Positions 32,064 to 45,670 of a stretch of 64,000 nt of DNA are shown one piece after another. Within the stretch, counting starts at the first letter, position 1, and each line of letters begins with the position of its first letter. The translations under genes and the position numbers were made by a program. A model generated the notes under the pieces. That model was not told the origin of the DNA. It made no database searches and was given only the letters and a program-made list of their open reading frames with translations. The stretch comes from an uncultured Ruficoccus sp. (GTDB lineage Bacteria; Verrucomicrobiota; Verrucomicrobiia; Opitutales; Cerasicoccaceae), in the NCBI GenBank assembly GCA_965140785.1, contig OZ223481.1, forward strand, positions 448,001-512,000, read 5' to 3'.

Positions 32064-33095
32064 GGATCGGCCAAAGGGGTCAGGCCAATAATTTAAATAT
32101 TGATTAGCCCCTGTGTTTGTGCTGAGGTGTGCGTATGGCAAGGGCTGTTCGCTTTCAGTTTCCGGGTGCGATTTACCATGTGCTCAATCGTGGGAACTAC
32201 CGTAAGGATTTGTTTACGGCGGGTGAGAGCGGGGCATGGTTTGTGCGGGCGCTGCAGGAGGCCAGTGAGCAGTGTGGCTGGCGTGTCCATGCCTACGTGG
32301 TGATGAGTAACCACTATCACCTGGTGGTGGAGACGCCGGAGCCGAACCTGGTCGATGGGATGCATTGGCTGCAAACGACGTTTGCGAGCCGCTTCAATCG
32401 CTCGATGGGCGAGCGCGGGCATGTGTTTCAAGGCCGCTACAAGGCGCTGCTGGTGGCACCGGGTCCTCACTTTACGGGGGTGGTCAATTATGTGCATCTC
32501 AACCCCGTACGCGCGGGCCTATGCACGCTGGAGGATTTGAGGAGCTATGGCTTGGGCAGCTATGGCCACTTTTTTCGCAAACATCGTCCCGACTGGCTGG
32601 TGCGCGCGGAATTCCTCGGCCAACTGCACCTGCCCGACAGCCTGAAAGGGATGAACACTTACGCAAAAATGCTAGCATTGGCCGATGAGCAAGACCCCGA
32701 AAAACGGGCGTCGCTGAGTCGCGAATATTGCCGGGGCTGGCTGATCGGTGACAAGGCCTACCGCGAGCAAGTCCTGGAGCGCATGAACAAGCATGAGTTG
32801 CGGGGGAGCCACTGCGGTGACGATGTCCGCAACCTCAACGAGTTTCGTTGGGAACAGGCGCTGGCAGAACAACTCAAGCAGCACGAAAAATCGTCAGAAG
32901 ACATTACCCGCGCCCCCAAGGCCGCTGATTGGAAAATCGCAATTGCCCGGCACATGCGCACCCACACCCGCGCCACCAATCCCTGGCTCGCAAAAAAGCT
33001 CTCCATGGGCCATCCCTCACGCGTCAGCAACTTGATATACAATCGCGACATTTAAATTATTGATCTGACCCCTTCGGCTCCCTTTGGCTTGATCC
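32064..33095. mobile_element. Y1/RAYT-type transposase element bounded by inverted repeats
   Basis: AAGGGGTCAGGCCAATAATTTAAAT (32074..32098) matches the reverse complement of 33050..33074 at 23/25; outer GGATCGGCCAAAGGG / CCCTTTGGCTTGATCC. Confidence 0.75.
32135..33055 (+). CDS. HUH Y1 transposase (IS200-like / RAYT family)
   Basis: YHVLNRGN, AYVVMSNHYHL (HUH), GHVFQGRYK, YVHLNPVRAG. Confidence 0.9.
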   Translation: MARAVRFQFPGAIYHVLNRGNYRKDLFTAGESGAWFVRALQEASEQCGWRVHAYVVMSNHYHLVVETPEPNLVDGMHWLQTTFASRFNRSMGERGHVFQGRYKALLVAPGPHFTGVVNYVHLNPVRAGLCTLEDLRSYGLGSYGHFFRKHRPDWLVRAEFLGQLHLPDSLKGMNTYAKMLALADEQDPEKRASLSREYCRGWLIGDKAYREQVLERMNKHELRGSHCGDDVRNLNEFRWEQALAEQLKQHEKSSEDITRAPKAADWKIAIARHMRTHTRATNPWLAKKLSMGHPSRVSNLIYNRDI

Positions 33096-33338
33096 GGCCG
33101 TGCTACGGCAGGACCTTGAGGCTGCCGGGATCGCTTATCAGGACGAGGAGGGCCGCTATGTGGACTTCCATTCCCTGCGGCATACCTGGGGCACGTTTTT
33201 GCAGGTCAACGGCGTGACGCAGCGCGAGGCTATGGAGTTAATGCGCCATCAGGACGAGCGGCTAACGTCGAAGATTTACACCGACACGCACCACCTGCGG
33301 CTCTTTGAGAAAGTCGAGGCTTTGCCCGCCCTCGAAAA

Positions 33339-33362
33339 AGGGTCACACATAGGGTCACAGAT
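33339..33362. repeat. 12-bp tandem repeat AGGGTCACACAT/AGGGTCACAGAT, probable integrase arm-type sites
   Basis: Direct repeat about 120 bp from the att site. Confidence 0.5.
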
Positions 33363-33483
33363 TTCTGGTAACTCGGGCAAAGTCCTGACAAAACGTGGCA
33401 TAAACAGTCACGATAATTCCGTTTCGGAACCTGTTGAATCTGAGTCGGTTTGCGCCGTTCTGACCCCGCCTGACACAGGCGGG

Positions 33484-33502
33484 AAAGTGGCGTCCCCACG
33501 GG
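33484..33502. repeat. att direct repeat, a copy of the tRNA-Glu 3' end (AAAGTGGCGTCCCCACGGG)
   Basis: 19/19 identical to 45589..45607. Confidence 0.92.
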
Positions 33503-33630
33503 GAGGTGATGCTTTGAGTCTTCTGTGCTGTTGAAAATCAGCGCCTTATGTAATTGTCTCAAGCGGGCGATAGCTACGTTTTGTGACCAAATATATAACA
33601 GGGCAAATGATGGTATGAAAAGGCTAAAAA

Positions 33631-34017
33631 CTAGAAAGTCTCTGGATCGCGTTCGTGGACTTCAGGAATATTGGTGGAAAAAGTGATGGTTGAGTTGTCA
33701 TAATCAATATGAAAATCAACGACTTCATCGTAATCATACTCTGGTATCATATCCTTGCATCCCATATAGGCTTCGCCCCGAAACGAAACATTTAAGTATC
33801 CTTGCTCCGGGTTTTCAAAAGACACATCACCTGCCCAATCTACCCCGCAAAACGTTTCACGTATATTCTGACAAAAGCCTGCGAAAAGAGTTTCTTCCTC
33901 ATCGCTAGATAATTTATCAAAAAATAATTTGATCAGCGCTTCTTTGTCTGAAAGAGCATTGCCTTTAAGTACCTCTAGATCTTCTTCAAAGATGTACTCT
34001 GTTACAGATGCTTCCAT
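33631..34017 (-). CDS. Acidic hypothetical protein (128 aa)
   Basis: Clean ORF in an AT-rich region, downstream of the HNH gene. Confidence 0.65.
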   Translation of the reverse strand: MEASVTEYIFEEDLEVLKGNALSDKEALIKLFFDKLSSDEEETLFAGFCQNIRETFCGVDWAGDVSFENPEQGYLNVSFRGEAYMGCKDMIPEYDYDEVVDFHIDYDNSTITFSTNIPEVHERDPETF

Positions 34018-34091
34018 TGGTTTAGCAGAACGTTTTTTATTATTCTTTATATCGATTACTTGTATTTTGTTTTATTGTCGATTGATGGCAA

Positions 34092-34727
34092 CTAAGTTTT
34101 TTTAAACCTATCTGTGATCGCTCTAATTCTTGGCAGAAATGTGGAGTCGAACTCTTGTCGAATCATTTCATCTGCGACAAACGGAAGCCTTTTTTGTAAT
34201 TCCGAAAAGCTTATGAAGGAACGAACGTAAAATGATACCCACCTTGTTCTTTCTTCTACCAACCTACTTTTATTTAGCAAGTTGATAGTAGCGCTGTGTC
34301 GCTGAAAGTCGGTTGATGCATTTATTAGAAAAGTTCTAAAATCCAATGTAAACAACCCGTGTGGAATCTCAAAGGGGTCGTCTATGTTGACCGAATCACC
34401 TTTGTCCTGATTTACAAAAGCTCTTGCTAGACGAAAATTATCCCACTCATAAGCCTGATGTGGATTATGACTTTTTGGAATAAAGTGATCCACAGACGAA
34501 TGATCATCGCTCGCCTGAGGATTTCTTGGCATTGGAATCCACGCCGAACAGTAAGCACACACTCCAGAATACAACGTGTATAATTCATTATGAGCACGAC
34601 TCCAATATCGATGGTATTTGAACTCGTGACTCGTAGGATTAGGTGTTCTAGTTAGAAATCTCTGCCCCGGTGTCCTTACCCGCGTGTTGAAGTTAGGGGG
34701 CTCTGGTTGCCGCGTTACTGGTTTCAT
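34092..34727 (-). CDS. HNH endonuclease (PtuB-like)
   Basis: CAYC...SVDHFIPKS...YEWDNF..N..KG; ATGA overlap with the ATPase stop codon. Confidence 0.85.
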   Translation of the reverse strand: MKPVTRQPEPPNFNTRVRTPGQRFLTRTPNPTSHEFKYHRYWSRAHNELYTLYSGVCAYCSAWIPMPRNPQASDDHSSVDHFIPKSHNPHQAYEWDNFRLARAFVNQDKGDSVNIDDPFEIPHGLFTLDFRTFLINASTDFQRHSATINLLNKSRLVEERTRWVSFYVRSFISFSELQKRLPFVADEMIRQEFDSTFLPRIRAITDRFKKT

Positions 34728-36571
34728 ATCTGAACTCCATGGTCCTCTGCGAATAACAACCAAGTCATCCAGAATTCATCATCAGGAGGTAGAACTTTAA
34801 GTAATTGGTCTGTGAGTTTTTTGACCTCAATCGACGATGCTAGCTTTGGTTCTAATTGAACGGTGCGTGCACGTTTAATTAAAGTTTCAGCATATTTACT
34901 CCTAGGTTCGGCTAGTCCAAATATATCTGAGCTTAGCCAATTATCGACTTTGCCGTGCCGAATGAAATCTTTTTCTTCAAAGTTAACCGTACCGGAGGAA
35001 GTGCAATCTAGGTGAAACGTTTTATCGCTTTCAGAATCAAAAAAACTATCTACAGATGCTAGGACTAATGGAGAATGAGACGCTACTAGTATTTGAATGT
35101 CAATGTCGTCATTCAAACTATTAAAGACACGTATGATTGCAGGTAATAAAATCCTTTGCCACTTCGGGTGTAAGTGTGCTTCAATCTCATCGATTATTAA
35201 AACGATCCTCTGCTCAAATTTATTTCCAGTTTCTCGTGATAATTGTAGATGCCGACTCCAAGTCCAAACAACTAGATAGGCGAGAGTCAGTATTCTACGA
35301 ATTCCCGCTGAGGCCAGTTTTAGGGGGACCTGACCGTACCTGTGTACTATGGAAGGAGTATCTCTGTAGTCTCCAATCAGTCTAATTGGAGGGCCAGCTT
35401 CAATAATCCCCAGGTCTGGTGGGGATAGCTCTTTAAGTGCGAGCATAAGCAGTCGAAACTCGTCGCTATCAGTTGCTTGCCATGAAATCCAGTCTCTGAG
35501 TAGCCCTTCGATAGATGCTTCGTTCCCTTTGAAAACATCGTCTCTTGTAAAGTTCAGGGCTTTTTGACCTATCGCTGTCCTATGCGGGTCCCATACTGAG
35601 AAAGAACCATCCACTCGTGCATAAATGACTAGGCCGGAGAGAGTTGGTCGCTTCCTAGGGGTTTGCCATCGCCCTAATTTTGGTGCAAATTTTAATTCTA
35701 TAGCATCGCCCGGATTATCACTTGATATTTGAAATTTGATAGTTGCGTTCTGGGGGGAAACCGCGCTTGTGGGGTAGGCTTGTTCGGCTGCCCATTCCCC
35801 TGTCAAAGCCCACCATGCCATATCGAGAATGAAGGTTTTGCCCAAACCATTATCTCCTGTGATGAGGTTGAGTCTTTCCCCAAGACTCATTTGAAGATTT
35901 TTGATACAACCAGTTCCATGTGCCTCAAGATAGGATAGTATACCGCCCGATTCGGGTTCAAGATCGGGGGGCGCAGAAAAGTGATTCAGAATGGCATTCG
36001 GTTCGAGGGGCAAGCTGTCGAACTTGAGCCGGTTAGCCAATGGTTGTAGGTCGAATAACTTATTCTGCTCCTCTGCGTTTACGGCGAAATAATCGGTGAA
36101 TTTAGCGATAATATCTGAGCTGGTCGTCTGATCCGACCAAGCCTCTTTTTTGAAAATCCAACACGCCAGAGGCAGCATTGGGATTTTTTTGGAATTTAGA
36201 AGTGCCTGTTGAAGTATGTCTATATAGTTCGGAGACCATCCCCATTTACTGCTCTTTTTCTCATGTAAAAAAGCGCTCTTGAAGGTGCGGGTATTGACAC
36301 TTTGCAATCCTTTTCCGGCATAATCGGGTCGTAGCCAGTCTTGGTTCTTCTCGTTGAACCTTAGCACTCGAAAAAACCATCTTGAACGAGGGTGGATTCG
36401 ATAATGTCTGACTAAAAAGTCTTTGTTCAGGTTATCTAGACTAATATCTATCTGGGAACCGACCGGTAGTCGCACTTCTTTGCAAGAAAGATAGCTTGTG
36501 CCAAAAAAAACATTAAAGTCTTTGAGTAATCTGATGGACTCAAGCAACGAATCTGCTGATATGTATTTCAT
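34724..36571 (-). CDS. ABC/SMC-type AAA ATPase (PtuA-like) with an extra N-terminal domain of about 200 aa
   Basis: Walker A GDNGLGKT, signature-like ASAG, Walker B/D-loop LIIDEIEAHLHPKWQ, ASHSP. Confidence 0.88.
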   Translation of the reverse strand: MKYISADSLLESIRLLKDFNVFFGTSYLSCKEVRLPVGSQIDISLDNLNKDFLVRHYRIHPRSRWFFRVLRFNEKNQDWLRPDYAGKGLQSVNTRTFKSAFLHEKKSSKWGWSPNYIDILQQALLNSKKIPMLPLACWIFKKEAWSDQTTSSDIIAKFTDYFAVNAEEQNKLFDLQPLANRLKFDSLPLEPNAILNHFSAPPDLEPESGGILSYLEAHGTGCIKNLQMSLGERLNLITGDNGLGKTFILDMAWWALTGEWAAEQAYPTSAVSPQNATIKFQISSDNPGDAIELKFAPKLGRWQTPRKRPTLSGLVIYARVDGSFSVWDPHRTAIGQKALNFTRDDVFKGNEASIEGLLRDWISWQATDSDEFRLLMLALKELSPPDLGIIEAGPPIRLIGDYRDTPSIVHRYGQVPLKLASAGIRRILTLAYLVVWTWSRHLQLSRETGNKFEQRIVLIIDEIEAHLHPKWQRILLPAIIRVFNSLNDDIDIQILVASHSPLVLASVDSFFDSESDKTFHLDCTSSGTVNFEEKDFIRHGKVDNWLSSDIFGLAEPRSKYAETLIKRARTVQLEPKLASSIEVKKLTDQLLKVLPPDDEFWMTWLLFAEDHGVQI

Positions 36572-37404
36572 TGGACAGCCTCATTTAAAATATATCTACA
36601 ATAGTCTTCATTGAGTTCGATTCCAATAGCGTTTCTACCTTCGCTAAGAGATACTCGCAACGTAGTTCCGCTTCCTGCAAAGGGGTCAAGGACACTGCCG
36701 CCAACAGGGCAGCCGATTTGAATGCATCGATGGACCAATTCATCTGGAAATGCAGCCGTATCAATCTCACCTCTAACCTTTGGTCTTGGGCTGATAGTCC
36801 AAACGTCTTCATCGATGCGATTGTTCTTTAGGTGTTCCCGATTGAAATAATATCTCCTACTTTTTGCGAACATAAATACAAACTCGTATGACCTCCTTGG
36901 TCGGTCACGCACGGATTCCGGAAGGCATTTTTCTCGATGCCAAATTATTGAGCTTCGCAATACCCACTCGGATTCGCAAAGCCTCATTGCGATTCTCCAA
37001 GGTATCCCTATCAATGATTTTCTTTGTAGTCCGACTCCTAAGCCTCCGCTTCTATCGACTGCCCGTAGTCCGAACCTTCGCTTTTTACTTTTAGCATCCT
37101 TACCCTGCGACTGGCCCTTGCCAGAATAGTAGGTGTCACCTATATTGAGAAAAAATGTTCCCTCTGGCTTGAGGATTCTTTTAAGTTGTTCTCCTACCAA
37201 AAACAATGACTCGACATAATCTGCTATAGAGTTTTCAAGTCCAATCTGACCATCGACCCCATAGTCACGTAGCCAAAAATATGGGGGGGAAGTAATAATG
37301 CAATCTACTGATTCTGAAGGAATTTGCGTGAGACAGTCATGGGCATCCCCGCAATGAAGCTGCCAAGTGTTCCCTGCTATATTTAGTCCATTCCATTGAG
37401 GCAT
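36568..37404 (-). CDS. Site-specific DNA methyltransferase (N4C/N6A, beta class)
   Basis: TSPPY catalytic motif precedes VLDPFAGSGTT SAM-binding motif; GIELN. Confidence 0.92.
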   Translation of the reverse strand: MPQWNGLNIAGNTWQLHCGDAHDCLTQIPSESVDCIITSPPYFWLRDYGVDGQIGLENSIADYVESLFLVGEQLKRILKPEGTFFLNIGDTYYSGKGQSQGKDAKSKKRRFGLRAVDRSGGLGVGLQRKSLIGIPWRIAMRLCESEWVLRSSIIWHREKCLPESVRDRPRRSYEFVFMFAKSRRYYFNREHLKNNRIDEDVWTISPRPKVRGEIDTAAFPDELVHRCIQIGCPVGGSVLDPFAGSGTTLRVSLSEGRNAIGIELNEDYCRYILNEAVQ

Positions 37405-37466
37405 AAGCTTGATATACAAGTAAATAAAGACGTCGTTGTGCAATCACCAAAATAGTTGGTGTCCGT

Positions 37467-37578
37467 GTTCACAAAAACGACCGTTTCCCTGAACTCCAAC
37501 TCCACTTAGCAGACATATGAGAGAAAAAGGGATTATTGGTTCAATAAACTGGTTTTTAAAAATAGAGTTTACAAAACC
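37467..37578. promoter_or_regulatory. res site of the serine resolvase
   Basis: 28-bp site I GTTCACAAAAACG-AC-CGTTTCCCTGAAC and inverted half-sites GGTTCAATAAACT...AGTTTACAAAACC upstream of the gene. Confidence 0.65.
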
Positions 37579-37603
37579 AAAATTTCACGAGTAATGTAAA
37601 CTC

Positions 37604-38185
37604 ATGAAGTTTGGCTACGCTCGTGTTTCCACTGCGGATCAAAACCTAGACCTGCAAATTGATGCTCTCCAAAAGGAGGGCTGCGAGAAAATCTTTAAAG
37701 ACAAGATTTCAGGCGCGAAGATCGAGCGCCCGGAATTCGACAAGATGCGCCAACTCCTGCGGGAGGGGGATATTGTCGTCGTCTACAAGCTGGATCGCTT
37801 GGGCAGAAGCTTAAGGCATCTCGTGGAGATTGTCTCTGACTTTCAGGAAAATAAGGTCAGCTTCAAATCCCTGAACGATCCCATTGATACCACAACCTCT
37901 CAAGGGAAGCTGATTTTCAACATATTCGCCTCTCTGGCTGAGTTTGAGCGCGATTTGATCCGGGAGAGGACTCGGGCCGGGTTGGACTCTGCAAGGGCTA
38001 GAGGGCGCCTTGGAGGCCGTCCTAAGGGGCTTTCCGCTGAGGCAGAGCAGAAGGCGATTATCTGCGAGTCTCTATACCGTGAAGGCAAGCACACGGTAAA
38101 CAATATTGCACGTCAACTGAAGCTGTCTAAGGCGACTCTCTACAAGTATCTGAGGCATAGGGGCGTCGAGATCGCCCAATCCTAG
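37604..38185 (+). CDS. Serine recombinase (resolvase/invertase)
   Basis: GYARVST, KLDRLGRS, AEFERDLIRERT..GL..AR.RGR.GGRP, C-terminal HTH. Confidence 0.95.
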   Translation: MKFGYARVSTADQNLDLQIDALQKEGCEKIFKDKISGAKIERPEFDKMRQLLREGDIVVVYKLDRLGRSLRHLVEIVSDFQENKVSFKSLNDPIDTTTSQGKLIFNIFASLAEFERDLIRERTRAGLDSARARGRLGGRPKGLSAEAEQKAIICESLYREGKHTVNNIARQLKLSKATLYKYLRHRGVEIAQS

Positions 38186-38240
38186 CCATCATTGGCCGGT
38201 GCTGATTCCCTCCCCTGCGGAACGTGTAGTCACTCCCGCC

Positions 38241-38261
38241 CATTTTGAACCCGGTTCAAAT
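38241..38261. repeat. 21-bp palindromic repeat CATTTTGAACCCGGTTCAAAT (copy 1)
   Basis: 20/21 identical to 43398..43418; core TTTGAACC-C-GGTTCAAA. Confidence 0.8.
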
Positions 38262-38264
38262 GCT

Positions 38265-39437
38265 TCAAAACTTGAGGTTTACATCAGCCTTGAGGGCAGC
38301 CTCTACAGCTTTCCGCATCTGAAGGCGGACTATATGGGCATGTTGCTTCTTGCAGACAATAGAGTCATGCACCGTGCCAAACGGAATTTTGGCCTTAACA
38401 AGCCTTATTCCGACATTATGGATAACTAAGTTCGCTTCCGCGTTCTGAAGGTATATGGCAAACCTTGAGCGATGCCCTTGTTTCTGTGCATCTATCAAGC
38501 CTGAGAGGATTGGGAAAAGCCTTTTCATTGCCTGCCAAAGTTGGCCCGTAGAGGGGGCGCGGTTGAAGAAAATCTGCTGGTAGCAGGCCACTTTGATCTT
38601 TTTACGAATCTTCAGCCTGCCTCCTGCTTCTTTTGCAATCTGAGTGTAGAAGTCCCCTTCAATGAATTTCAAGTAACGCGCCATTTCCTCCCGATGGGCT
38701 TTACTCCGGCGATTATAGAGGGTGGCAGATAGTAGAGGCTGTGCGCTTGGTATATCGACTTCAACCACGTCCTCCCCATCGAGAGTAAGCAACTTCCGCA
38801 TATCTTTTGGCGTACTGGTCAAGGCGTGAAAACAGCGCTTCGATTGGGGAGATTTTGTAAAAAAGCTGCTCTGCCCATTGACGAAGTCGCGACACATCTC
38901 CCGGTGACTTCGCTTACGCTTCTGGTACCGTCGAATGAGGACATCTACGTCGGACTTGAACTTGAATCTCTCCAGATTTTCTCGAATAGCATCATAGGGG
39001 AAGCCGACTGCCAATTCCGGTTGAGTGGCATTGAACTGCCTTACTCGCTTGAGGCACCGAGTATCTACAATCTTCATTTTCAGCTGACGGAGATTGGCGT
39101 AGGCAGGCTTTAAGCGATAACAAATCGATTTCTCTCCGGGAATATATCGGTGATCGCATTCAATCACACCCAAATCTTCCAACATATCTCGGGCCTCTCG
39201 TGCATACCCTTGACCAAGCAGGCGCTTCAGCATCGATCCTTTGATTTGCACCCATCCGTCATCCCCCTCTCTGGAGTATGCAGCTACAAACCCAATCCAG
39301 TTTATCAGGGTAATAAACAACAAAGCTTTGTGATGCCGTTCAACGCGAAGACTGTAATACTGAGGCATTCGCTCCTTCCTGGCGATTGCCCCTAGGTCAA
39401 ACCCCTTTGGAAGTAGGTAATACTCTGGCACCTTCAT
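38265..39437 (-). CDS. Compact family-A DNA polymerase-like protein (390 aa)
   Basis: Motif A VEVDIPSAQP, motif B RKKIKVACY, LQNAEA, motif C VHDSIV; no exonuclease domain. Confidence 0.6.
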   Translation of the reverse strand: MKVPEYYLLPKGFDLGAIARKERMPQYYSLRVERHHKALLFITLINWIGFVAAYSREGDDGWVQIKGSMLKRLLGQGYAREARDMLEDLGVIECDHRYIPGEKSICYRLKPAYANLRQLKMKIVDTRCLKRVRQFNATQPELAVGFPYDAIRENLERFKFKSDVDVLIRRYQKRKRSHREMCRDFVNGQSSFFTKSPQSKRCFHALTSTPKDMRKLLTLDGEDVVEVDIPSAQPLLSATLYNRRSKAHREEMARYLKFIEGDFYTQIAKEAGGRLKIRKKIKVACYQQIFFNRAPSTGQLWQAMKRLFPILSGLIDAQKQGHRSRFAIYLQNAEANLVIHNVGIRLVKAKIPFGTVHDSIVCKKQHAHIVRLQMRKAVEAALKADVNLKF

Positions 39438-39602
39438 GAAGTTCCCTTCTTTCCGCTCATAGTTCCGTCTATGATCCCCCCTCCTATTTATGATTCCGGT
39501 TTGAACCCGAAATCATAATTTTAGGTCATTCATGGATATGGTGAACAATCGCTTGTCGCAAGCGTATAGAGCATAGGAGATGAGATGCGGATACTCCTAG
39601 AC

Positions 39603-40346
39603 CTACCAGCTCACGACCCATCGAACGGGTATCTGTTCGGTGCCGTTGTCGCAGTTGGGGCAGGGATACCAGCGGTCGGGGGATTTCCCTTTTTCGATCT
39701 CGCCCCGCAAGCTGCCTTTGCCGTGGCAGAGGGGGCACGGGATGGCTTCGACATCGTAAATGATCAGCGTCCTTTTCCTGTCCCGAAGGATTGAAGTAAA
39801 ATCCGTTTGGCTCAGGCCGTTGCCAGACGGATTAATGTCCGGGGTCCATTCCTGTACTCTGCGTACGGTGCGAGTTGCTCCAATCACGCTCATGTATTGA
39901 TATGTCCCTGCGTCGAAATAGTAGAGGTAGACTTCTTGATCGTCTAAGACCTTGCGGGAATCACCCAACACCAGCGCAACCACTTCGCTGCCATTCGATC
40001 TGGGAGTGGCCAGACTGGGAGCGCCCTTGTAGGGGCTGGCCTGAAAGACTTTAAAGTACCCCTGTTTAGGATAATGGTCAGGGAGAATGATGGGGACATC
40101 GCCGGGGGCGAGATACTGCTTTTGCCAGAGATGAAACAGGCGCAGCAGGGTTTCGCGGGGGTATTTGCTGCTTCCGGTTTCGCCAACCCGAAACTCTCTA
40201 ACGTCCATACGCGCTTCGAAGGACGGGGGTGAACCATAATTTGTCGGGTGGCCTGTCAACGTATCGCCCGCTAGGGGCGAGGTCGCGAAGCTGGCCAGCA
40301 CTACAAGATTGCGCAACAGCATTAACATTCTATTTCCGTCACTCAC
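39603..40346 (-). CDS. Secreted hypothetical protein with a C-terminal DnaJ-like Zn finger
   Basis: Signal peptide; CPLCHGKG...CPNCDNG. Confidence 0.7.
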   Translation of the reverse strand: MSDGNRMLMLLRNLVVLASFATSPLAGDTLTGHPTNYGSPPSFEARMDVREFRVGETGSSKYPRETLLRLFHLWQKQYLAPGDVPIILPDHYPKQGYFKVFQASPYKGAPSLATPRSNGSEVVALVLGDSRKVLDDQEVYLYYFDAGTYQYMSVIGATRTVRRVQEWTPDINPSGNGLSQTDFTSILRDRKRTLIIYDVEAIPCPLCHGKGSLRGEIEKGKSPDRWYPCPNCDNGTEQIPVRWVVSW

Positions 40347-41080
40347 TTTGATTTATCCTTCACGCCCTGAGGCTTCTTGGCCAAGTCCTTGAATTTATCG
40401 AAATAAGGCTGGAAAACAGCTTCCAACCAAAGGCGGTTCGCCATGCGCTGGGCAGCGGCTCCACCTGCGGAAGAGGACGCTTGGGCATAATTGCCAAGGT
40501 CGCTCTCAAGCGAAGACTGGATAAACGCGATTCTCTCCAACAGGTTCTCAGCCTCTATCTTGACCACGTAGCCGCAATAGCGCCGGTAAATGCCGGGGTC
40601 CACATCTGTTCTCTCCCCGCTCACATGGGTGTGATTAGCCCTTCTGCTGGCTTCCGTGTATTTGACGGGTTGCGGGATTGTATTGGCGGGAAAGTCGTTG
40701 ATGAGTGTCTGAATCTTTGCCTCAAGCGCTTCGTGCTGCTGGCGTTTCTGCTCGACGAACTTCCGTGTGGGAGCATCGAGCATTTCCAGCGGAATTGTTA
40801 CCTTCATTGGGTCTCCTTTCACATCCCGGTAGTCCAACCGCTCAACGATTACGGATGTATCATCGGCAGAGATATAAATGCCCTGAATCGAACGCCCATC
40901 GACAGAAGTAAACGTATCAGCGGGAGCGGCTTCCTCAGTATTCCCTTGGGCCGCATGCAAGGGGTAGAGAGAAGTTAGCAGGATCAGGACACCCACAGGA
41001 TACATTTTCAAATGCCGTAATTTCATCGGGAGGGATGGCATATTTGCGCTTCCCGTATGGGGCACGCTGTATGAGTTCAT
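40343..41080 (-). CDS. Secreted hypothetical protein with an SHD1-like motif
   Basis: Signal peptide (..YPLHA); TFTSVDGRSIQG..IPLEML; GTGA overlap with the next gene; start uncertain. Confidence 0.65.
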   Translation of the reverse strand: MNSYSVPHTGSANMPSLPMKLRHLKMYPVGVLILLTSLYPLHAAQGNTEEAAPADTFTSVDGRSIQGIYISADDTSVIVERLDYRDVKGDPMKVTIPLEMLDAPTRKFVEQKRQQHEALEAKIQTLINDFPANTIPQPVKYTEASRRANHTHVSGERTDVDPGIYRRYCGYVVKIEAENLLERIAFIQSSLESDLGNYAQASSSAGGAAAQRMANRLWLEAVFQPYFDKFKDLAKKPQGVKDKSK

Positions 41081-41180
41081 CCCGTTTTTTAGCCCGCTAG
41101 TTAGATGACAGGCAACCTAAAAATGCTACGTATATGGTGTAGATGTATTTGCATCAAAAAGATATTCTACCTGCGCAAGC

Positions 41181-41411
41181 ATGGGGACAGAGGCAAAGAA
41201 GGAGTTACGACAACTTGGCGAGGCGATTCGAGTCGCCCGCAAGCAGATGAATGTTAGCCAAGAAGACTTTGCCGAATGGTGCGACCTTCACCGAACCTAC
41301 ATCGGCCATGTCGAGCGTGGAGAGGTCAATGTCTCGTTCAGGAATGTCCTGAAGATCGCCGCCGCGTTGAAGATGAAGCCTTCTGTCTTGCTGGATGCGG
41401 CGAATCTTTGA
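41181..41411 (+). CDS. XRE-family HTH regulator (C-protein-like)
   Basis: IRVARKQMNVSQEDFA..LHRTYIGHVERGEVN. Confidence 0.9.
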   Translation: MGTEAKKELRQLGEAIRVARKQMNVSQEDFAEWCDLHRTYIGHVERGEVNVSFRNVLKIAAALKMKPSVLLDAANL

Positions 41412-41685
41412 TCGATGTTTGCTCCCTGTGCTTCTGTAAGCAGCGGACAAATTCATCTTCTGTGATTCTCACAGCCCATACCTCTCCTAGAAATTCGGCA
41501 TCTGGGGCAATATTATGGGTAACGTTCAAAACCTTGAAGTAACCTTGATCGTAAATTTCGATCTCTTCGCCTTGGCATGGTAGTCGAAGAACCTCATAAT
41601 ATTCATGGTTCTTCCAGACTGTCGAACCCGGTTCATGGGTGTGGAGGTATATTTTTACCGTAGGTATCATATGGTTGTTTTTCAT
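41338..41685 (-). CDS. Hypothetical protein
   Basis: Starts 4 bp after the terL stop; its 3' end overlaps the XRE gene. Confidence 0.55.
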   Translation of the reverse strand: MKNNHMIPTVKIYLHTHEPGSTVWKNHEYYEVLRLPCQGEEIEIYDQGYFKVLNVTHNIAPDAEFLGEVWAVRITEDEFVRCLQKHREQTSIKDSPHPARQKASSSTRRRSSGHS

Positions 41686-41689
41686 AATT

Positions 41690-43018
41690 TTATGCTAGCG
41701 CTATGGTTGACCTTGGCCGGTGATAGAGGGCTCCCAGCACGGCGTCAGCCCGATCCGGGGAAGACAGGCCGCGTGCGTGTAGTTGCGCCTTGGGTTCGAT
41801 CTGGACCTGTCCCCGGCTGTTAAGGGTGTACTGACGCGAGACAAGCTGCTCGTGGAGGAGTTTATCGGGCGGAAGGATGATTCCCCCTGTCTTAATCTTT
41901 TCCGCCCCTTCCAGCCAAATCTCTGTCCCCATATTGGCGTAGGCTTCGCTGTTCTTGGCCGGTTTCTCGTTGCGGATGCGGTTCACCTTCCACCCCTCTT
42001 CTTTCAGGCGGTCGCAGATGGGGATTCCGAGCCCGGAGCCATCGGCGCTGATATCTTGGGGCGTGAGCCCATGTTCGCGGAAGAGGCGGATGAACTCTCC
42101 GACTGCGGACATGGTGTCCCGCTCCCGCCATGCCTTGGCGATCTGGACGCGATTGCCGCGCCGGATAGCCAGGACATTTTCATCGCCCCCTGCCGCGAAG
42201 TCACAGAAGGCGTGTGTCTCGCCATCGGTGAAGGGGGTTTGCGCCTGTAGACACTGCTCAAGCGCGGATAGGGGGACAACGCAGCGGTCCCCGTCCTGTT
42301 CGGGGAACTCCGCATGGATCATGCTGCGAACGAGCGGGCTGTCTTCCCCGTATTTTTCAATCTGTTCGTCGATCCATTTCTGGGGGATATGCGGGCAGTC
42401 AAAGGAGGTTACCGTGAAAGGACGGAAGAAGCGACGCTCGGTGGTAAATGCCCGGTAGAACTTGCCCCGGCGCGGGCCGGGCGAACTCATCAGGAGGACA
42501 CGCGTGGGCTGGCAGCGGTCTATCGCCTCAAAGATTTCATCGGGGATGGACTTGGCTTCGTCGCAGATGACGAGGAGGTTGTCGTTGTGCCAGCCTTCGA
42601 AGCGCCCCGGATCATCAGTCGAAAAGCCGTAGATGCGTGACCCTGTGGGCGTCTCGACTTCGGTTTCCAGAAATTTCCAGTGCGGGAAAAGGTGCTGATA
42701 GGCGCGGATGCCGGGATAGAACTGTTCCTTGACCTGACGGAAGACGCCCGCCGTAACCAGCGTCATACTGCCGGGGAATACGGCAGCATGCCAGAGTGCG
42801 AGCGGGACACCTAGGCTGGAGGTCTTGCCCGTGCCGTTTCCCGCCTTGATGGCAACGGAGCTTCCCCGCTTATCCAGCGCCGCTAGGGCGTCCTGCTGCC
42901 ATGGGTATAGCTCCATGCCCAAAACGCCTCTGGCGAAGCCGTAGGGCAGGTGTAGGAGGCTTGCAGGGTCATTCGCTGTCGGTGCTGCTGCCTTCATAGC
43001 GCTTTCTGGCCTCCGCAA
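41690..43018 (-). CDS. terL: Phage terminase large subunit
   Basis: YPWQ, Walker A AGNGTGKT, Walker B VICDEA, SSPG, nuclease DFAAGGD, DGSGLG, SPDRADA. Confidence 0.88.
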   Translation of the reverse strand: MRRPESAMKAAAPTANDPASLLHLPYGFARGVLGMELYPWQQDALAALDKRGSSVAIKAGNGTGKTSSLGVPLALWHAAVFPGSMTLVTAGVFRQVKEQFYPGIRAYQHLFPHWKFLETEVETPTGSRIYGFSTDDPGRFEGWHNDNLLVICDEAKSIPDEIFEAIDRCQPTRVLLMSSPGPRRGKFYRAFTTERRFFRPFTVTSFDCPHIPQKWIDEQIEKYGEDSPLVRSMIHAEFPEQDGDRCVVPLSALEQCLQAQTPFTDGETHAFCDFAAGGDENVLAIRRGNRVQIAKAWRERDTMSAVGEFIRLFREHGLTPQDISADGSGLGIPICDRLKEEGWKVNRIRNEKPAKNSEAYANMGTEIWLEGAEKIKTGGIILPPDKLLHEQLVSRQYTLNSRGQVQIEPKAQLHARGLSSPDRADAVLGALYHRPRSTIALA

Positions 43019-43400
43019 TCGCGTTCAGTGTGGTCTCATCGATCCCCAGCCGATGATTGATCGTCCCCTCGTGCCGGTGGGCAACCTCTAGGCGGCTCTT
43101 GGCGAAGTGTTCCGGGCGCACATGCTCCAGCCACCATTTGGCGGCGCTCAGGTCTCCGGCGTCTATCGCTTCCCGTATCGCCTTCAGGCGGGTTGCCACG
43201 CCCCTAGCCAACGCCTTGTCTATGGCCTCAGAAAACTCAGGAAACTTCCGCCGCCATTCGCAGAAGGTCTCATAGGAAATCCCTGCCAGCGCCGCCGCAT
43301 CCTTTAGGGGGAGCCCGTCCCCGATGTGTTCAAGGATGTCCTTGGTCAAGGCGGGCGTCCGCTTCGACGGCCTGCCGCATTTTCTGGTTTTCGTACGCAT
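42969..43400 (-). CDS. terS: Terminase small subunit-like HTH protein
   Basis: GRPSK..HTH AAALAGISYETFCEW..PEFSEAI..AAKWWLE; directly upstream of and overlapping terL. Confidence 0.75.
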   Translation of the reverse strand: MRTKTRKCGRPSKRTPALTKDILEHIGDGLPLKDAAALAGISYETFCEWRRKFPEFSEAIDKALARGVATRLKAIREAIDAGDLSAAKWWLEHVRPEHFAKSRLEVAHRHEGTINHRLGIDETTLNAIAEARKRYEGSSTDSE

Positions 43401-43418
43401 TTTGAACCCGGTGCAAAT
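43398..43418. repeat. 21-bp repeat CATTTTGAACCCGGTGCAAAT (copy 2), containing the terS start codon
   Basis: 20/21 identical to 38241..38261. Confidence 0.8.
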
Positions 43419-43572
43419 TTTGGAAGTTAAAGCGGGCTGCCTATGCCACCTTAACTTACGCAACCCCTACCGGGTTAATAATGTCCGCCAGAAATAGTGT
43501 CAATACATATTGTTGATAGCAAACAGTATGTAACAGATTAGTTGTCAATGGCCGCCTTGTCTTGTCAGGCGT

Positions 43573-45480
43573 TCAGCTCTGTTGAATCTGATAAATGTTC
43601 GGCTTTCTTGTCGGGCGTAATTTATCCAGAGAGAGCCGCTTAAGGTCCAAGCCATAATCGACTTTCTCAATGGCGGTCTTGAGATATTTAATAGTGGGAG
43701 CCTTTTTGTGGATATAATTACTCCTCATCGCATGTTCAAAGAACTTCCTTTCTTGGGTGGACCAGCCGCATAGGGCATCAATGATTCCCAGCTCAAGACC
43801 TGCCTCATGACATGCCGTTGCAAACGTATGCCTAAAGGAATGGAAAACGAGTTCTCGGGTTTTTATTGAGGCGAGCTTTTTAAGGACAACTTCATTGAAC
43901 CATCGCGATACGCCTTGGGGGCGTAGGTTTGGGAAAAGTCTTTGGGAGGTAGGCTCAATGTTTCGTTTGTAATCCATCAAGCCGAGAGCCAGTAGCTTGC
44001 TATGAACGGGAACAACCCTCACGCTGCCCGGTGTTTTTGCTGACTGTCCTTCCTTCGCGTTCGTGATCGAAAAACTGTAAATCTTGTCCTGCTCGACGAT
44101 CTGATCGCAATGAAGCTGGCAAATCTCGCCAAGACGGGCTCCCGTGTAGAGCGCGATTAGGGGCACCCAGAAATATCCGTTATGGATGATGTGATTGCCC
44201 GGACAATTTCGTCGTTTAAGGTTTTTGCAACCGGTGTAGGAGGGGACGGAGAATATCTTCCTGAGCATGTCTGCCTTGAAGGGTTCTCGGACTATGGAGG
44301 CGCTAGCTGTATCTCTCCGGGCATTATTCGTGAATCTGTAGTTCGTTGCCCAACACTTATCGATCAGTCCGGTTTCTTCTGCGAACATGAATGCTCCCCG
44401 TATCCTTCCGAGGGAATTATTGACCGTGTAGTTGTTTCGCCGTGTATCGCCGTCTTTATCTGCGATCTTGATGCATTCTCCATACGATTTACCGAGATAT
44501 TTCTTTCCCGTTCTCGGGGGTAACGCCGCGATCTGCTTTTTTATCAACTGAAAATCATCATAGGTCAGGGTCTTGATGTCTTTGTCTCCAAGGAATTCCA
44601 CCATGACCTCCTTTGAGGTATTCAAATCCGTGCGGATTTTTTTAGAAATTTTTCCTTCTCCCTCAGACTTCTTATACTCTTCGTAGCGTGTGAACAACTG
44701 GGAGATCGTGACCTTTGGCCTTAGCGCTTCATCTGCGATGTGCTCTTGAGGGACTGAAGCGACCATGGCGGCTTCAAGCTTTGCCAATTCCTTGGGGTAG
44801 AAGGGGGTGCTCAAGCGCTTGTCGAGGCAATCCAGCTCCCATCTATGGCATTCGTCCAAGATGCTCCACATGAGGCGGGACAGCTTCTTAAAGCATTTCC
44901 CATCCTCTCGAAGGTGGATATTGTTATCCAAGCAAATTTGCTTGGCCGCTATGACATGCGGCAAGTCGTCATGCCTGCGCCGTCGATTCGAGTGAAGGTC
45001 GTGTAACTCTTGGTGGAGATCGGCCTTGAAGTCCTGAACCTTGCCGGAGACATACTCGGATTCCTTTTCATCTATGGCGATGTCGATAAAATTGAGGAGC
45101 ACATCCCTTTCATTGCTGAACCAATTTTCAAACCACTCATCGATCATCGCGAATAGCTGAGATAGCGGGACTGCATCTATCGGTGCGATTTCCGCGAGTT
45201 TGGCTGTCAATTTGGCATGATGGGAAAGGATATTCTGCCTAAACGGGTGGCGTGGCTGCTGAGTCAGCCTGCGGGCGTCTTCGATCTGCTGATCGAATGT
45301 GGAGAGATTCTTCCGGTGCTGCTTTTCAATCTCTGCGGCAGGTCCGCCGCCTATCTGGACTGTGAGGTATTTTTTACCGATTACGGGCTGCACATCGGCA
45401 GGGACGGGATAGCGGCTGAAGTAGGCTTTTCGTTGCTTGCGAAACGTCAAATATTTGGCCTTGGGCACGGCTTCTTCCAT
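43573..45480 (-). CDS. Tyrosine integrase/recombinase with a long N-terminal region
   Basis: YTGARLGEICQL, KT..S.R.VPVH, FHSFRHTF, GW...Y; adjacent to tRNA-Glu. Confidence 0.92.
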   Translation of the reverse strand: MEEAVPKAKYLTFRKQRKAYFSRYPVPADVQPVIGKKYLTVQIGGGPAAEIEKQHRKNLSTFDQQIEDARRLTQQPRHPFRQNILSHHAKLTAKLAEIAPIDAVPLSQLFAMIDEWFENWFSNERDVLLNFIDIAIDEKESEYVSGKVQDFKADLHQELHDLHSNRRRRHDDLPHVIAAKQICLDNNIHLREDGKCFKKLSRLMWSILDECHRWELDCLDKRLSTPFYPKELAKLEAAMVASVPQEHIADEALRPKVTISQLFTRYEEYKKSEGEGKISKKIRTDLNTSKEVMVEFLGDKDIKTLTYDDFQLIKKQIAALPPRTGKKYLGKSYGECIKIADKDGDTRRNNYTVNNSLGRIRGAFMFAEETGLIDKCWATNYRFTNNARRDTASASIVREPFKADMLRKIFSVPSYTGCKNLKRRNCPGNHIIHNGYFWVPLIALYTGARLGEICQLHCDQIVEQDKIYSFSITNAKEGQSAKTPGSVRVVPVHSKLLALGLMDYKRNIEPTSQRLFPNLRPQGVSRWFNEVVLKKLASIKTRELVFHSFRHTFATACHEAGLELGIIDALCGWSTQERKFFEHAMRSNYIHKKAPTIKYLKTAIEKVDYGLDLKRLSLDKLRPTRKPNIYQIQQS

Positions 45481-45592
45481 GGGCTAATTGTTACCAGATT
45501 TGTAACCAACGCCAAGGAGATAGCTTTCGTAAGAAGCTGGTTTCCAACAACCTGTTGATGCCCAAAAACTTTTGCCACTTAAACTTGAAAAG

Positions 45593-45670
45593 TGGCGTCC
45601 CCACGGGGATTCGAACCCCGGTCGCTGGAATGAAAATCCAGTGTCCTAGACCTGACTAGACGATGGGGAC
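45593..45670 (-). tRNA. tRNA-Glu (TTC)
   Basis: GTCCCCA acceptor stem, CTGGA-TTTTCAT-TCCAG anticodon arm, GTTCGAATC, CCA end. Confidence 0.97.

Follow-up and report, generated by a model that had tools for sequence, protein, structure and literature searches.

Described phage satellites either steer the packaging motor of a helper, through terS or mimicry of cos, or build a whole head. Phage-inducible chromosomal islands (PICIs), such as the SaPIs and EcCICFT073, are presented in PMC6092414 and PMC10085698 as elements of 12-15 kb with an integrase, a unique att site and terS, without structural or lysis genes, and with a replication module followed by one or more packaging genes and cargo (here and throughout, statements on cited sources refer to portions of those sources). 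PICIs borrow their TerL, and TerL is a marker of capsid-forming PICIs (cf-PICIs) in SatelliteFinder (PMC6092414 / PMC10085698). Here we analyse a 64,000-nucleotide stretch of contig OZ223481.1 from an uncultured Ruficoccus sp. (the whole stretch is called the window), which holds an island that resembles PICIs in most of these features but encodes TerL itself. We conclude that this island is probably a PICI-like, tRNA-integrated satellite that brings its own TerS and TerL, has no recognisable shell genes and packages its DNA into helper proheads. The satellite families listed in a 2024 review include nothing of a portal-less terS+terL type (PMC11389934), our search of the satellite literature, with supplements and subscription papers outside its scope, found no description of such a family, and a literature search found no paper on satellites of Verrucomicrobiota.

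The island is precisely inserted at a tRNA-Glu gene and measures 12,105 bp from repeat to repeat, inside the PICI size range of ~12-15 kb. The features that define it are, in window coordinates:

33484-33504: att direct repeat, tRNA-distal copy, 21 bp (repeat detection; the junction agrees with the empty site in the congener G001)
45589-45609: att direct repeat, tRNA-proximal copy, 21 bp (repeat detection)
45593-45670, minus strand: tRNA-Glu(TTC), the integration target (tRNA prediction)
43573-45480, minus strand: tyrosine integrase, 635 aa (PF00589, E 5e-12; R449, K482, H547-x-x-R550, W573 and Y589 present)
42969-43400, minus strand: terminase small subunit, terS, open from 43463 with a likely start at ATG 43400 (phrog_4102, E 3e-22)
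41690-43018, minus strand: terminase large subunit, terL, with a likely start at ATG 42997 (phrog_2, E 1.6e-23)

The right att copy overlaps the 3' end of tRNA-Glu, and the two copies are 100% identical over 21 bp; an initial annotation made from the sequence alone was right that the repeats are present, and wrong on their length, which it gave as 19 bp. No third copy with up to 3 mismatches occurs in the whole 4.36-Mb genome. In G001 the site is empty, with tRNA-Glu joined directly to the sequence that lies left of the distal repeat; the alignment has 82% and 93% identity on its two sides, which overlap in the 21-bp core. The GC content of the island is 49%, against 60% in its flanks.

Thirteen open reading frames (ORFs), namely the tyrosine integrase, terS, terL, o115, an XRE regulator, o245, o247, o390, a resolvase, a methylase, PtuA, PtuB and o128, make up 92% of the island, and the biggest interior gap is 172 bp, so there is no space for a hidden portal or capsid gene. 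Searches of all 13 against Pfam and PHROGs, and of eight window proteins against NCBIfam, gave no match to a portal, capsid, tail or lysis family, in agreement with the earlier description of an island filled by ORFs none of which resembles a structural gene. The P4 genes for replication and capsid size (alpha, sid, psu and delta) likewise have no Pfam, PHROG or NCBIfam match among the 13. Four ORFs (o115, o245, o247 and o128) have no family match, apart from a weak zinc-finger match in o247 (E 0.004). Every ORF is open, and the catalytic residues are in place.

The island terminase appears functional, as predicted from its intact motifs and a structure model. The 3' end of terS overlaps the start of terL, and TerL has a Walker A motif (G64-K65-T66), a Walker B motif (D153-E154), nuclease residues D273, D326, D422 and D425, and a short hydrophobic tail at its C-terminus. 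Its AlphaFold2 model (pLDDT 91) matches Sf6 gp2 with Z 24 and an rmsd of 13.6 over 386 residues, the domains being hinged differently, and matches the ATPase domain of P74-26 (Z 23, rmsd 2.3, 208 residues) and the nuclease domain of E217 (Z 22.8, rmsd 2.0, 193 residues) domain by domain; a sequence search of solved structures gave a single weak TerL match. The integrase and both terminase genes thus look as intact as had been claimed.

That this gene pair marks a conserved family of capsid-less islands with both terminase subunits across Verrucomicrobiota, the distinct satellite-like type surmised at the outset, is well supported. A TerL search found 1,536 homologues among 8,000 candidates scored, of which the top 119, leaving aside the window's own, have identities of 51-75%. 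Genome loci number 46, and 25 of these (L008-L031 and L046) form a close group; 23 are Verrucomicrobiota by title, and the different labels of L020 and L028 are possibly due to misbinning. In each of the 25 a terS-like gene immediately precedes terL (20 by BLAST at 44-71%, five of a divergent type), and an integrase is in view in 22. Repeats at tRNA or tmRNA ends bound 14 of the 24 loci L008-L031; among the other 10, seven are shortened by contig ends and L016, L027 and L029 have no clear att pair. Two metagenome loci are also repeat-bounded, L166 at tRNA-Ser and L160 by a tRNA-like repeat at a contig end. The metagenome loci as retrieved have no terminal repeats. The search for elements of similar size proposed in the initial annotation thus yielded 16 repeat-bounded relatives of 7.5-15.3 kb which, counting the window, use 12 RNA-gene types. 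The family is uncommon: 10 of 401 genomes in a phylum sample match the TerL profile, the window's own genome alone at clade level, and close copies occur in one of 100 chosen relatives (two copies, in G008).

Judging from their sequences, family members swap integrases, replication genes and cargo but retain terS-terL. The 25 longest nucleotide matches to the window cover the terS-terL stretch only, at 65-70%. Integrases align in 118 of 231 pairs with a median identity of 33%, the TerL median being 60%, and the island's integrase shares just 24-27% identity with its counterparts elsewhere in the clade. Genes are usually arranged as int-(xis)-variable replication module-terS-terL-cargo, with an xis-type gene in several relatives, and not in the int-terS-terL-polA synteny first put forward; a close relative, L154, reads int-ORF-xis-o390-terS-terL, and L008 has the int-terS-terL adjacency of the window.

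Head genes were also sought in the relatives. Hidden Markov models of three portal types and one capsid from related phages match no clade locus in six frames, and 30 of 45 clade loci, some of them redundant, extend at least 3 kb past terL. PHROG scans of 146 of 202 and 110 of 122 listed ORFs recognised no portal, capsid or tail gene, with a sensitivity that is incomplete, only two of four phage control proteins being recognised; the set of 146 dropped integrases, terS and short antisense ORFs and included L043 and L045, which lie outside the clade.

The portal-less loci form one clade in three TerL trees whose viral rows were thinned at 80% identity: 23 of 57 rows (SH-aLRT 98), 37 of 87 rows (SH-aLRT 99) and 22 of 52 rows (UFBoot 100, SH-aLRT 97), the last tree leaving out four long-branch rows and one frameshifted row. 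All genome matches of at least 54% identity are portal-less, and the phages and prophages found reach 52% at most, so the closest homologues are not the complete prophages that the initial annotation had named in its own counter-scenario of a simple deletion derivative. IMG/VR phages are the sister group in the 57- and 87-row trees and not in the 52-row tree, and the approximately unbiased (AU) test rejects neither these phages (p 0.41) nor prophages with PF04860 portals (p 0.23) in that place; joining the window's three-row subclade with the PF04860-portal prophages is rejected (p 0.02). In the best 80 IMG/VR phage loci (44-52% identity), a portal gene follows terL in 72, at a median distance of 395 bp, and the remaining eight end within 669 bp of terL.

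The ratio of nonsynonymous to synonymous substitution (dN/dS) indicates that terS-terL is under purifying selection. For 34 full-length TerLs, a set that excludes the four loci with a broken terL, the median is 0.19 and the maximum 0.34 (335 of 561 pairs with finite dS, 226 saturated), and catalytic residues are invariant except for one T-to-S and two D-to-E changes. The TerS median is 0.39 and its maximum 1.28, unaligned starts included.

A conserved, intact translocase without a head of its own most simply acts on the head of another. Upon helper infection, excision would fall to the integrase, either with an excisionase provided in trans or without one, and the winged-helix/family-A core protein o390 would initiate or prime replication. 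TerS would then select the DNA of the island for cleavage by TerL, whose C-terminal tail would attach the motor to the portal of the helper. Since no capsid-size modifier was recognised, we suggest packaging as a concatemer, with room for about three 12-kb copies in a head of 30-43 kb, the size given in related phage records. The helper would also provide tails and lysis, and Septu and the methylase would repay the host. Bringing its own TerL would cut the helper interface down to one contact, TerL-portal. Whether such islands make up a 'motor-bringing' satellite class, a long-lived Verrucomicrobiota lineage that hijacks only the portal and changes helper by swapping the TerL C-tail, is in our judgement evenly balanced.

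In T3, lambda, SPP1 and P22, TerL binds the portal via its C-terminus (reviewed in PMC13595956). The clade's TerL tail has a median of 24 aa and a net charge of +1; TerLs that accompany a phrog_1216 portal have an acidic tail with a median of 51 aa and a net charge of -5, and 78 of 82 end in a glycine motif. A basic-then-hydrophobic C-terminus is found in 69 of the 119 homologues versus one of the 82 podovirus-portal (phrog_1216) TerLs. The clade's short tail resembles those of two prophages with PF04860 portals (L038 and L039), a hint from two sequences only, and a viral-contig scan with the HK97-portal-type TerL of L039 gave matches of 23-29% only. As a separate observation, a single TerL family is accompanied by no fewer than four portal types (phrog_1216, Mu-type, PF04860 and phrog_113), and the C-terminal tails differ by portal type (L035, L038, L039, L041, L252 and L256 versus L054-L133).

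Several observations limit or weigh against a satellite that packages itself into helper heads. Neither a helper, nor an excised circle, nor packaged DNA was found in the data examined; contigs of the sequencing runs X1 and X2 contain no attP or attB joint, which is evidence neither way, since contigs drop rare variants and X1 is possibly the source sample. The window copy is without an excisionase or AlpA-type gene; no ORF of at least 50 aa separates int from terS, and the gap to the longest terS ORF is 110 bp. Its polymerase gene o390 is downstream of terL. In four of the 25 genome loci terL is broken (L027, L029, L031 and L046), and a Mu-type protease domain follows terL in six loci (L025, L030, L162 and L164-L166), so head genes are not entirely absent from the family. 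The AU test does not reject joining the window's five-row subclade with IMG/VR phages (p 0.23) and is borderline for its three-row subclade (p 0.05). Identity goes no higher than 52% among the best 80 viral-contig loci, and the family was not seen there. The clade's tail is unlike the longer, acidic tail of the most similar phages, and a helper search of the window's own genome (91% complete) gave no PF04860, PF05065 or phrog_1216 match.

Among other explanations, the one that survives best, though we think it unlikely, is that the terminase pair is kept for defence or interference, cutting phage concatemers, occupying portals or poisoning the motor, while the island moves by other means. The cargo is rich in defence genes, with Septu here and restriction-modification, HEPN, HNH and PIN genes in relatives; a terminase-targeting defence, TerI, is known (10.1101/2025.02.27.640495); and the island L251 has a related integrase, a resolvase and an o390 homologue but no terminase. 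However, a decoy would need neither ATPase and nuclease sites that are invariant or conservatively changed in 34 of 34 TerLs nor the coupled DNA-binding TerS present in 25 of 25 loci, and terS-terL occupies the packaging slot behind the replication genes, as terS does in PICIs (PMC6092414).

Slightly less probable again is a real satellite lineage of which the window copy is an immobile member, either a rearranged chimera that has lost its excisionase and regulator or an island of another type that gained a terminase module. The missing xis/AlpA gene, the different gene order of L154 and an integrase so far from those of other clade members would all fit such a history, but the ORFs are open with their catalytic residues, the repeats are perfect, the site is empty in a congener, and L008 has int next to terS-terL too.

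The window's genome also contains, on contig C32 (L259:4741-14256), a compact head module of terL, a Mu-type portal, a protease, a major capsid and a fibre-like gene. It has host-like GC, no integrase or tail tube was seen in it, it is syntenic in four of four congeners with a portal 85-91% identical, and portal matches occur in 12 of 301 phylum genomes; it looks domesticated and similar to a gene transfer agent. Its presence in the same genome and its conservation in congeners are what recommend it as the helper that the island hijacks, which we nonetheless judge improbable: a close orthologue of its portal is found in none of the 23 genomes that hold clade elements (three have weaker Mu-type portals, 28-51%), its TerL has a different tail and no BLAST relation to the island TerL, and a sister relation between the clade and the TerLs of Mu-portal prophages is rejected by the AU test (p 0.025). 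The module is a helper candidate for the window's genus only. Least probable of all, and largely refuted, is a decayed prophage with its structural genes deleted: TerL relatives at 39-52% do sit in complete phages and prophages, and portal-less L042, L043 and L045 outside the clade nest among prophages, but no clade locus has a portal or capsid remnant, no intact prophage collinear with the island was found, sizes are uniformly small, att ends are precise, selection is purifying with saturated synonymous sites, and many different tRNAs are targeted.

We return to the island with its own TerS and TerL, whose remaining genes are, in window coordinates:

38265-39437, minus strand: o390, winged-helix domain and minimal family-A polymerase/T7-RNAP-type core, a predicted replication protein
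41181-41411, plus strand: XRE helix-turn-helix regulator, divergent from o245-o247 (family match)
41338-41685, minus strand: o115, unknown, with a weak homologue directly after terL in L148
40343-41080, minus strand: o245, likely exported protein, no family match
39603-40346, minus strand: o247, likely exported, with a zinc finger at its C-terminus; homologues in L009 and L015
37604-38185, plus strand: small serine resolvase, 75-77% identical in L008 and L154
36568-37443, minus strand: N6/N4 DNA methyltransferase (PF01555, E 4e-45)
34724-36571, minus strand: Septu PtuA (ATPase), anti-phage cargo (PADLOC PDLC00270, E 6e-197)
34092-34763, minus strand: Septu PtuB (HNH nuclease), anti-phage cargo (PADLOC PDLC00348, E 1e-49)
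33631-34017, minus strand: o128, acidic protein of net charge -23 and unknown function, with a 46% identical homologue at the same end of L008

The protein o390, first annotated as PolA-like and correctly so at the level of fold, has no Pfam or NCBIfam match. Structure comparison of its model reveals an N-terminal winged-helix-like domain followed by a minimal family-A polymerase core, with D228, R278-x3-K282 and H357-D358 supplying the two catalytic aspartates and the RxxxK motif. Its best structural matches are mitochondrial RNA polymerase (Z 15.0), T7 RNA polymerase (Z 13.5) and DNA polymerase I types (Z 12-13); Foldseek against the PDB gave nothing below E 0.001, the matches listed there being family-A enzymes, and in BFVD it matches stand-alone phage proteins (E 2e-16). 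We infer a replication role, whether the product be DNA or RNA, because a homologue occupies the replication slot between xis and terS in L154 and L155; in other members the slot holds a Rep_trans-like, primase-helicase or O-like initiator. The island has no recognised D5 helicase or SSB partner. In run X2, a contig with a piece of o390 (window 38558-38972) and a loose end has a depth of 68 against ~2-8 for its neighbours, due either to a library artefact or to another, more abundant copy. A joint from 37507 to 40233, whose short side has only 30 letters, and several X2 loose ends that begin at one four-base word were treated as library chimeras.

The XRE regulator, the resolvase and the defence cargo (the methylase and Septu PtuA/PtuB) named in the initial annotation are all confirmed by family matches, and the PtuA ATPase and PtuB HNH nuclease lie next to each other as a Septu system. 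No master regulator of the AlpA, MerR or Stl type was found beside the integrase; the XRE gene sits with the cargo, and an opposite-strand XRE after terL also occurs in L008, L009, L012 and L018. The proteins o245 and o247 are likely exported cargo, because their N-termini are hydrophobic and a signal-peptide-like start is common to the o247 family. A word-based search found no homologue of o115, and o128 matches only hypothetical clusters, with a low recognition score.

An imperfect palindrome occurs twice in the island:

43402-43416: copy 1, directly before the terS start, at the same position in L008, L009, L010, L014, L031, L148 and L154
38245-38259: copy 2, just past the o390 stop codon

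It precedes terS in eight of 38 aligned loci and is enriched inside the elements (22 hits against one in the flanks and 3.7 expected) and not in phages (22 versus 21.6). An operator or origin is a more likely function than a pac site, because the palindrome also occurs, in two copies, in the terminase-less island L251. This island (L251:127-10071) combines a window-type integrase (25% identity), a resolvase, a 1,401-aa gene of unknown function, an o390 homologue (41%) and the two palindromes. By eye, a promoter-like TTGACA-17-TATTAA lies upstream of terS at window 43503-43475 (minus strand), with a similar site in L008; a promoter scan listed nothing upstream of terS, and the island has no perfect match to the LexA box.

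Other observations concern the relatives and the insertion site. A subgroup (L025:11389-12435, L030:11450-12478, L162 and L164-L166) has a shorter TerS that lacks the helix-turn-helix segment, and in several of its members terL is directly followed by a gene that joins an unknown N-terminal domain to a Mu-type head-protease domain and whose product possibly acts on helper proheads. L149, L152 and L163 have weak similarity to a prophage gene that we take to be MuF-like, a reading that Pfam does not bear out. L042, L043 and L045, outside the clade, are portal-less terS-terL loci nested among prophage TerLs; direct repeats flank L043 (10.6 kb) and L045 (12.0 kb), in which no integrase was recognised, and separate origins or decayed prophages are possible. 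Just outside the distal repeat is an older island remnant, a C-terminal integrase piece (window 33100-33534, plus strand) with 91% identity to the integrase of 429 aa that G001 carries intact at tRNA-Glu; the rest of it was not found in the window's own genome, and an IS200-like transposase element with 29-bp inverted repeats (window 32070-33078) abuts it. tRNA-Glu is an island hotspot in the genus (L228, L230 and L229 in G001, G003 and G002): G001 has a different island of ~7.3 kb with a rolling-circle initiator and methylase, G003 another integrase, and G002 ~130 bp resembling the leader of the island's integrase.

We class the islands as a probable variant of phage satellite; that they form a conserved family is well supported, whereas their mechanism is inferred. 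If they do package themselves as proposed, they would be a route by which defence genes move among Verrucomicrobiota, and the family would be a natural set of tail variants for terminase-portal specificity; such islands have probably escaped the satellite models now in use or been catalogued as prophage debris.

Beyond TerL, the window copy differs from PICIs in having no AlpA, MerR or Stl beside int and an A-family polymerase core in place of a primase-Rep pair (PMC6092414, PMC10085698). The cf-PICIs such as EcCIEDL933 also have their own TerS and TerL, and their TerL likewise forms a satellite-only clade apart from phages (10.1101/2022.09.08.507074), but the window island lacks their capsid, protease, portal and head-tail connectors, and its TerL has its best structural matches in Sf6 and P74-26. 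VEIMEs and PICI-like tycheposons (PMC9618062; 10.1101/2020.12.28.424599) are likewise small and integrative, their replication genes are interchangeable, and some carry terS and DNA polymerase genes; VEIMEs are stated to package concatemers (PMC12822802). These elements, in contrast, are described with terS or a capsid gene, TerL presumably being supplied by the helper. EPIPs share a size of ~11 kb, an integrase, terS and helper dependence, but are listed without TerL and with genes for a head-tail adaptor and stopper, a capsid and a tape measure (PMC12822802). From P4-like satellites the window island differs in having no match to P4 replication or capsid-size genes. The stand-alone core, two aspartates and RxxxK of o390, and its place in a mobile element, recall the minimal A-family polymerases of the TV-Pol/CCPol type, which are predicted or shown to be primases (PMC2579912; 10.1101/2022.12.02.518924), although o390 has an N-terminal winged-helix domain and no D5 helicase or SSB beside it. 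A family with a motor and without a head would define a third interface between satellite and helper, TerL-portal, and the chances seem to us equal for and against these islands occupying the gap between terS-only PICIs and capsid-forming PICIs.

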